DNA from: Escherichia coli
GTDB lineage: Bacteria > Pseudomonadota > Gammaproteobacteria > Enterobacterales > Enterobacteriaceae
Length of the DNA stretch: 64,000 bases
Strand: one strand, 5' to 3'
NCBI RefSeq assembly: GCF_003334815.1
Contig: NZ_QOWO01000001.1
Part shown: positions 8,054 through 9,943 of the stretch, piece after piece
Layout: each line of letters opens with the position of its first letter
How positions within the stretch are numbered: position 1 is the stretch's first letter
Notes under the pieces: model-generated
Seen by the model: only the letters and a program-made list of their open reading frames with translations
Told to the model about the DNA's origin: nothing
Database searches by the model: none
Made by a program: the position numbers and the translations under genes

Positions 8054-9943
8054 TTACGCATCACCACCGAAACGACGACGACCGGTAGAATCATCACGAC
8101 GCGGAGCGCGGCCTTCACGACGTTCGCCGCTAAAACGACGACCATCACCACGGCCACCTTCACGGCGTTCACCGCTGAAGTTACGACCGCCTTCACGACG
8201 TTCGCCACCGAAACCACGACCACCGCCACGACGCTCACCGCCAGTATGCGGCTGTGCATCGCCCAGTAACTGCATGTTCATCGGCTTGTTGAGAATGCGA
8301 GTGCGCGTAAAGTGTTGCAGCACTTCACCCGGCATACCTTTCGGCAGTTCGATGGTGGAGTGAGAAGCAAACAGCTTGATGTTACCAATGTAACGGCTGC
8401 TGATGTCGCCTTCGTTAGCAATCGCACCAACGATATGACGAACTTCAACACCATCATCGCGGCCCACTTCAATGCGGTACAGCTGCATATCGCCAACATC
8501 ACGACGTTCACGACGCGGACGATCTTCACGGTCACCACGCGGGCCACGGTCGTTACGATCGCGCGGACCACGGTCATCACGGTCACGGAATTCACGTTTC
8601 GGACGCATCGGCGCATCTGGCGGTACGATCAGAGTACGTTCACCCTGTGCCATTTTCAGCAGTGCCGCAGCCAGAGTTTCGAGATCCAGCTCTTCACCTT
8701 CAGCAGTCGGCTGAATTTTGCTCAGCAGTGCGCGGTATTGATCCAGATCGCTGCTTTCCAGCTGCTGCTGTACTTTAGCGGCGAATTTTTCCAGACGGCG
8801 TTTGCCTAGCAGTTCTGCGTTCGGCAGTTCTACTTCCGGAATAGTCAGCTTCATAGTACGTTCAATGTTGCGCAGCAGACGACGCTCGCGGTTCTCAACG
8901 AACAGCAGCGCGCGGCCAGCACGACCCGCACGACCGGTACGACCGATACGGTGAACGTAAGACTCAGAATCCATCGGGATATCGTAGTTAACTACCAGGC
9001 TGATACGCTCAACGTCCAGGCCACGGGCTGCAACGTCGGTCGCAATCAGGATGTCCAGACGACCATCTTTCAGGCGTTCCAGTGTCTGTTCACGCAGCGC
9101 CTGGTTCATGTCACCGTTCAGCGCGGCGCTGTTGTAGCCGTTACGCTCAAGAGCTTCAGCCACTTCCAGAGTCGCGTTTTTGGTACGAACGAAGATAATC
9201 GCCGCATCAAAATCTTCCGCTTCCAGGAAACGTACCAGTGCTTCGTTTTTGCGCATACCCCAGACAGTCCAGTAGCTCTGGCTGATGTCAGGACGGGTAG
9301 TCACGCTGGACTGAATGCGCACTTCCTGCGGCTCTTTCATAAAGCGGCGGGTAATGCGACGAATCGCTTCCGGCATGGTTGCAGAGAACAGAGCGGTCTG
9401 ATGACCTTCCGGGATCTGCGCCATAATGGTTTCAACGTCTTCGATGAAGCCCATGCGCAGCATTTCGTCAGCTTCATCCAGAACCAGACCGCTCAGTTTA
9501 GAGAGGTCCAGAGTGCCACGTTTCAGGTGGTCCAGCAGACGGCCCGGAGTACCGACAACGATCTGCGGCCCCTGACGCAGGGCGCGTAATTGCACGTCAT
9601 AACGCTGGCCGCCGTACAGAGCAACCACATTTACGCCGCGCATGTGTTTAGAGAAATCCGTCATTGCTTCAGCAACCTGTACCGCCAGTTCGCGGGTCGG
9701 TGCCAGCACCAGAATCTGTGGTGCTTTCAGCTCAGGATCAAGATTCTGCAACAGAGGTAAAGAGAATGCTGCAGTTTTTCCGCTCCCCGTCTGGGCCATA
9801 CCCAGAACGTCGCGGCCATTCAGCAGATGTGGAATACACTCTGCCTGAATTGGAGATGGTTTTTCGTAACCCAGATCGTTAAGGGCTTCAAGGATAGGAG
9901 CCTTCAGGCCCAGATCTGCAAAAGTGGTTTCGAATTCAGCCAT
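8054..9943 (-). CDS. deaD: Cold-shock DEAD-box ATP-dependent RNA helicase DeaD (CsdA)
   Basis: ORF track 8054..10009; start trimmed to [13 protein letters not shown] (629 aa); motifs [15 protein letters not shown]; RG/RGG-rich C-terminal tail. Confidence 0.95.

Follow-up and report, generated by a model that had tools for sequence, protein, structure and literature searches.

The last 62 residues of the Escherichia coli DEAD-box helicase DeaD (CsdA) are a repetitive Arg/Gly-rich tail that is predicted to be disordered and that differs in length, between species and within E. coli, at a nearly constant net charge. The tail is probably a disordered, net-basic tether that contacts RNA non-specifically and aids strand annealing and condensate formation, with its repeats drifting in frame and its charge and terminal motif held by selection. 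It covers residues 568–629, corresponding to positions 8057..8242 (minus strand) of the 64,000-nt E. coli stretch analyzed here (the window), as delimited by a match to Pfam family PF12343, residue composition and AlphaFold2 confidence scores (pLDDT).

The window is E. coli K-12-like. The deaD (csdA) coding sequence lies on the minus strand at 8054..9943 and encodes 629 aa plus a stop codon, as defined by the open reading frame (ORF) list, a Pfam scan and identity with K-12. Annotation starts the protein at the ATG at 9943, and E. coli records carry a 1,890-nt deaD coding sequence matching the 629-aa form. The ORF list stretches the gene upstream to a TTG at 10009, which adds the region 9944–10009 and yields 651 aa; this extended form is probably not translated. 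Pfam assigned DEAD (residues 30–196, E 4e-51), Helicase_C (residues 232–340, E 7e-30), DeaD_dimer (residues 374–443, E 3e-17), the DbpA RNA-binding domain (residues 489–558, E 3e-20) and DeaD_C (PF12343; residues 568–629, E 9.2e-12, score 45.6, model positions 1–62 of 62). The protein thus has the helicase core, dimerization domain and DbpA-type domain of a DeaD/CsdA orthologue. A 751-nt query around the tail is 100% identical to the DNA of E. coli K-12 strains, in which it is annotated as deaD, and occurs as a single copy in 5426/5426 complete E. coli genomes, again annotated as deaD among the matches listed. The naming of the gene as DeaD in the earlier note, made from the sequence alone, is borne out by this architecture and by the identity with K-12. 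Genomic position agrees as well, since mtr adjoins deaD in E. coli records and the 414-aa permease ORF at 6656..7900 is mtr by E. coli annotation. The neighbor on the other side is a 294-aa TPR lipoprotein-like ORF at 10123..11007, which we take to be nlpI, so that deaD would lie between mtr and nlpI.

An intrinsic terminator of deaD, with a 9-bp stem (6 G-C pairs) followed by TTTTTTT, is located at 7987..8011 on the minus strand, 43 nt beyond the stop codon. It was picked up by the terminator scan only, its stem being below the 12-nt limit of the repeat search, which found no inverted repeats of at least 12 nt in positions 7950–8700. A structured RNA element at the deaD 3′ end was considered and rejected, with no Rfam match at the gathering score in positions 7800–10300. 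In strain 98228, one clinical E. coli isolate, IS200C (tnpA) is inserted in the mtr–deaD intergenic region (window positions ~7901–8053), the region that houses the terminator hairpin.

The tail consists of four degenerate 11-aa copies of F[GS]GERREGGRx and ends in RRRFGGDA. GERR occurs at DeaD residues 569, 580, 591, and 606, and F[GS]G at residues 578, 589, 604, and 625. The repeats are also visible in the DNA. Tandem Repeats Finder reports a core tandem array at 8147..8242 with a period of 33 nt, 2.9 copies, 71% matches and a score of 108, and looser direct-repeat families span 8061–8240. The recurrence of 6-mers in the tail was matched by only 73 of 20,000 residue shuffles, and that of 5-mers by 431 of 20,000. 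The repeats are therefore considered genuine, as they recur beyond what composition yields in shuffles and their motif is common to 80 other species. The earlier note had described the last 80 residues as degenerate repeats of the 9-mer GGERREGGR. Its repetitive Arg/Gly-rich tail stands, in both protein and DNA, with the extent reduced to the last 62 residues and the unit lengthened to 11 aa. The stretch immediately upstream, residues 549–567 (19 aa; 8243..8300, minus strand), is non-repetitive and nearly invariant in an 81-sequence alignment, with invariant columns I177–Q185, L186, and G188–A190 in alignment numbering. It sits at and just past the end of the DbpA domain, which Pfam places at residue 558.

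The 62 residues comprise 20 Gly, 19 Arg, 7 Glu, and 4 Asp, giving 63% Arg plus Gly, 18% acidic residues and a net charge of +8. This composition recalls the eukaryotic RGG/RG boxes of LAF-1, Ded1/DDX3, FUS, and nucleolin, which are likewise Arg/Gly-rich and of low complexity. Such boxes bind RNA and promote condensation, and arginine methylation is typical of them; we know of no arginine methylation in DeaD. Thandapani et al. in 2013 reportedly defined tri-RGG, di-RGG, and tri-RG motifs as RGG or RG repeated at spacings of 0–4 residues. A canonical RGG box was rejected by regular-expression search, which found one RGG (residue 572), RG at residues 572, 576, and 598, a single di-RG, and no tri-RGG, di-RGG, or tri-RG. 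The label 'RGG-rich' given earlier to the tail does not fit a sequence with one RGG, one di-RG and interleaved acidic residues. With no motif of the strict RGG/RG kind and 18% of residues acidic, the analogy with eukaryotic boxes is only partial.

Disorder was predicted with AlphaFold2 run on DeaD residues 374–629 with the 81-sequence alignment. Residues 563–629 have pLDDT of 36–43 and no secondary structure, and the DbpA domain folds as a beta-alpha domain with pLDDT of 74–90. The tail is predicted on this basis to be intrinsically disordered. PDB chains named DeaD cover residues 6–210 and 218–445 only. PF12343 is described as the 'DeaD helicase C-terminal disordered region' of E. coli DeaD/CsdA, and the tail is that family itself, with no difference between the two. 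The match is significant, covers the full model length and lies past the DbpA domain, at the very C-terminal end. Precomputed PF12343 matches are also found on many homologous fragments that keep the tail. The end-to-end match and the low pLDDT together uphold the earlier reading of a low-complexity tail.

Tails were compared at 80 Enterobacterales loci obtained from a scan of species-representative genomes. Length between species was counted from the invariant anchor LNKPMNMQ; the residues that follow the anchor are encoded at window positions 8057–8263 here. Counted in this way, tails are 58–102 aa long with a median of 77, and the E. coli tail is 71 aa; GERR is present in 1–5 copies and Arg plus Gly make up a fraction of 0.44–0.59. 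The tail and its repeat motif are present in 80/80 species. The end is nearly always RRR(F)G(G)DA, and columns R249–R251, D255, and A256 of the 81-sequence alignment are invariant or nearly so. Each tail has 16–28 basic and 9–20 acidic residues, and the two counts co-vary across the 80 species (r = 0.98). In every one of the 80 species net charge is +6, +7, or +8; its standard deviation is 0.52, versus 2.4 for basic and 2.2 for acidic residues. This pattern, which is descriptive because the species are related, suggests that net charge, not length, is the property kept constant in the tail. The constancy could stem in part from shared ancestry and from repeat units that are themselves near neutral.

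Length alleles also occur within E. coli. At least 80% of the 247-nt interval 8054–8300 is kept in 5420 of 5426 genomes. A 633-aa allele arises from a tandem 12-nt duplication that adds 4 aa (REGG). A junction-specific query placed this allele (WP_001306022.1) in 158 of 5426 genomes, strain 042 among them, and it is found in strains PCP06238 and 10035776-3. Strain A1.S1.160 has a 639-aa allele (+10 aa) in which a 15-nt GGERR unit is present in three tandem copies versus one. Strain EC0026B_R4 has a 603-aa allele (–26 aa; WP_005001325.1) that lacks exactly the 78 nt from the repeat copy at 8111 to that at 8189, and strain FXCREC035 has a 585-aa allele (–44 aa) that has lost 132 nt between the octamers CACGACGC at 8095–8102 and 8227–8234. 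Every tail indel seen in E. coli is in frame and has its junctions inside direct repeats, a placement that, judged from the sequences, is as expected for slippage or repeat-mediated recombination. Tail length therefore varies both between species and within E. coli; an invariant length had been named at the outset as an observation that would speak against the tail reading. Identity over the 247-nt interval falls to about 95–96% in some E. coli lineages (O157:H7, 96.4%; O145, 95.5%), a level of difference that seems rather high for a core gene of E. coli. In the tail alignment, substitutions are scattered single-base changes, and the sole protein change seen there is G579S.

Some sequenced isolates have lost 26 or 44 of the 62 residues, so cells can live without most of the repeats. 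The tail could on these grounds be largely dispensable, slippage-prone filler, weakly selected for solubility or charge and lacking a mechanistic role of its own. The nearly two-fold length range between species, the E. coli alleles that have lost 26 or 44 residues or gained repeats, and the indel junctions within direct repeats are all in keeping with filler. Nevertheless, all 80 species have the tail, the shared motif, the terminal RRR..DA and a charge of +6 to +8 despite the two-fold change in length; the interval is retained to at least 80% in nearly all E. coli genomes, and all indels seen are in frame. Constant presence, motif, end, and net charge, together with indels that occur only in frame, point to purifying selection on the tail and make the filler reading quite improbable. 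We favor instead a tether whose repeat number and length would drift, as repetitive DNA is prone to in-frame slippage and recombination, with selection retaining composition, net charge (+6 to +8) and the terminal motif. A stricter form describes the tail as a charge-clamped, length-variable polyampholyte, in which slippage would make the in-frame alleles and each gain of Arg would be balanced by Glu or Asp, leaving the net charge at +6 to +8. This stricter form is possible but doubtful.

In the proposed mechanism, the tail would act as a secondary tether that binds RNA without sequence specificity, adjacent to the DbpA-type RNA-binding domain. It would keep RNA close to the helicase core and accelerate strand annealing, and its multivalent charge contacts may help DeaD self-associate into condensates. 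As background, Xu et al. in 2017 reportedly found that the C-terminal regions of DeaD have a part in RNA binding and in its function in the cold, and droplets of E. coli DeaD in vitro are reported to have been observed by Hondele et al. in 2019. CsdA speeds annealing in the absence of ATP, and the site proposed, by analogy with Mss116p, CYT-19, and Ded1, is its basic C-terminal domain (PMC3590231). CsdA also requires single-stranded extensions, of either polarity, a need that was attributed to a secondary RNA site, non-specific and located in the C-terminal domain (PMC1616957). CsdA(1–443) retains ATPase activity and the full-length protein is aggregation-prone (PMC3814787); published truncations such as 1–443 lack the DbpA domain and the linker as well, and the roles were ascribed to the C-terminal domain as a whole. 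Purified DeaD undergoes salt-dependent phase separation and forms condensates in cells (PMC12758526). RNA binding by residues 568–629 themselves is suggested by their composition and by the literature on basic tails (PMC3590231, PMC1616957). We infer tethering, annealing and condensation for these residues from composition, predicted disorder, conserved charge and the literature.

The closest functional parallels are the basic tails of Mss116p and CYT-19, which are unstructured, Arg-rich and placed after a structured C-terminal domain. The DeaD tail falls in the same class, being net-positive (+8), predicted to be disordered and preceded by the DbpA domain. The Mss116p and CYT-19 tails tether RNA non-specifically near the core and aid annealing, according to work by Mallam et al. 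2011, Busa et al. 2017, and Mohr et al. 2008 as cited in PMC3590231 and PMC6178137. Tethering of this type is, by analogy, the working model adopted for DeaD. The likeness is one of functional class only, as the tails have no sequence homology to that of DeaD. The DeaD tail differs in its ERRE-containing repeats and 18% acidic residues, and DeaD is dimeric with a DbpA-type domain before the tail. Another parallel is provided by Pseudomonas aeruginosa RhlE1 and RhlE2, proteobacterial DEAD-box helicases that also have C-terminal disordered regions; those regions modulate RNA binding, phase separation and functional specificity (PMC11260450). RhlE is, however, another paralogue with an unrelated tail sequence and without the dimerization and DbpA domains.

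A mainly protein-protein or regulatory role for the tail was also weighed, with docking to RNase E and the degradosome, to ribosomal particles or to proteases, or autoinhibition of the core, and with RNA binding incidental. Bacterial DEAD-box proteins are thought to use their C-terminal extensions for partner contacts as well as for RNA binding (PMC1616957), and in the cold the degradosome can recruit CsdA, as cited in PMC3814787. The RRR(F)G(G)DA end is far better conserved than the repeats and resembles a short linear motif. However, NudC, the one mapped partner in the literature consulted, binds DeaD through the N-terminal region, with no binding to the C-terminal construct (PMC10654059). 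The residue make-up is typical of a generic polycationic or polyampholyte binder of nucleic acids, and the literature consulted documents no partner of residues 568–629. Docking as the main role is accordingly judged unlikely, and the RNA tether remains the preferred reading.

The strand opposite the tail carries a 110-aa, Pro/Arg/Ser-rich ORF with a TTG start (8031..8363, plus strand; ORF list), which the earlier note had traced to the same repeats. The frame exists as described, and it is a product of the tail sequence through codon make-up. The antisense ORF and deaD share third codon positions, a register in which sense Arg (CGN) is read as Arg, Gly as Pro, Glu as Ser, and Phe as Lys or Asn; the Pro/Arg/Ser-rich product follows from this recoding. 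A stop in this register requires a sense Tyr, His, or Gln codon. All 17 stops of the antisense frame across deaD arise in this way, and the tail is free of such codons, so the frame stays open there. A real antisense protein overlapping the deaD 3′ end could be argued from the 110 uninterrupted codons with a TTG start and from a frame that is uninterrupted across the tail in 53/80 species. Against such a protein, its openness is dictated by the sense codons, and a stop interrupts the frame within the tail in 27/80 species, including Salmonella enterica subsp. diarizonae. No GGAG/AGGA-type Shine-Dalgarno sequence was found upstream of the TTG, in an AT-rich intergenic stretch, and no plus-strand promoter-like site was found in 7850–8450, where the single match is on the minus strand. 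RefSeq annotation under the match shows deaD only, among the matches listed. Stops in relatives, openness forced by the sense strand and the absence of these signals do not describe an overlapping gene, and a real protein is considered extremely improbable. The ORF is most likely, from its codons, a by-product of a coding stretch free of Tyr, His, and Gln, and should stay unannotated as a gene.

A second low-complexity stretch, separate from the tail, is the Arg/Asp-rich linker between the dimerization and DbpA domains (residues ~444–485; window positions 8490–8615), with direct repeats at 8504..8586 on the minus strand (direct-repeat families). It is 40–68 aa long between species and has pLDDT of about 47–53. 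A protein search with DeaD residues 480–629 returned mostly short, fragmentary gene calls. Many public 'proteins' of 85–88 aa begin at the internal MPGEVLQHF of DeaD, and a 214-aa E. coli protein call traverses the Arg/Asp linker in another frame. They look like fragmentary or frameshifted gene calls made where the 3′ half of deaD is repetitive, and not like tail proteins in their own right.

The DeaD tail is already known and has a curated Pfam family, and the present description matters little beyond correct annotation. The E. coli in-frame length alleles and the near-constant net charge over a two-fold length range are mildly new and descriptive, and the repeat register is also detailed here. 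The tail offers a natural bacterial disordered region that drifts in length by repeat slippage at a fixed net charge, a case relevant to current work on DeaD condensates and on bacterial disordered regions. The natural alleles without 26 or 44 tail residues could be ready-made material for work on tail function. If the charge clamp is true, repeat number could tune RNA tethering or condensate properties of DeaD, and hence cold adaptation, by lineage.
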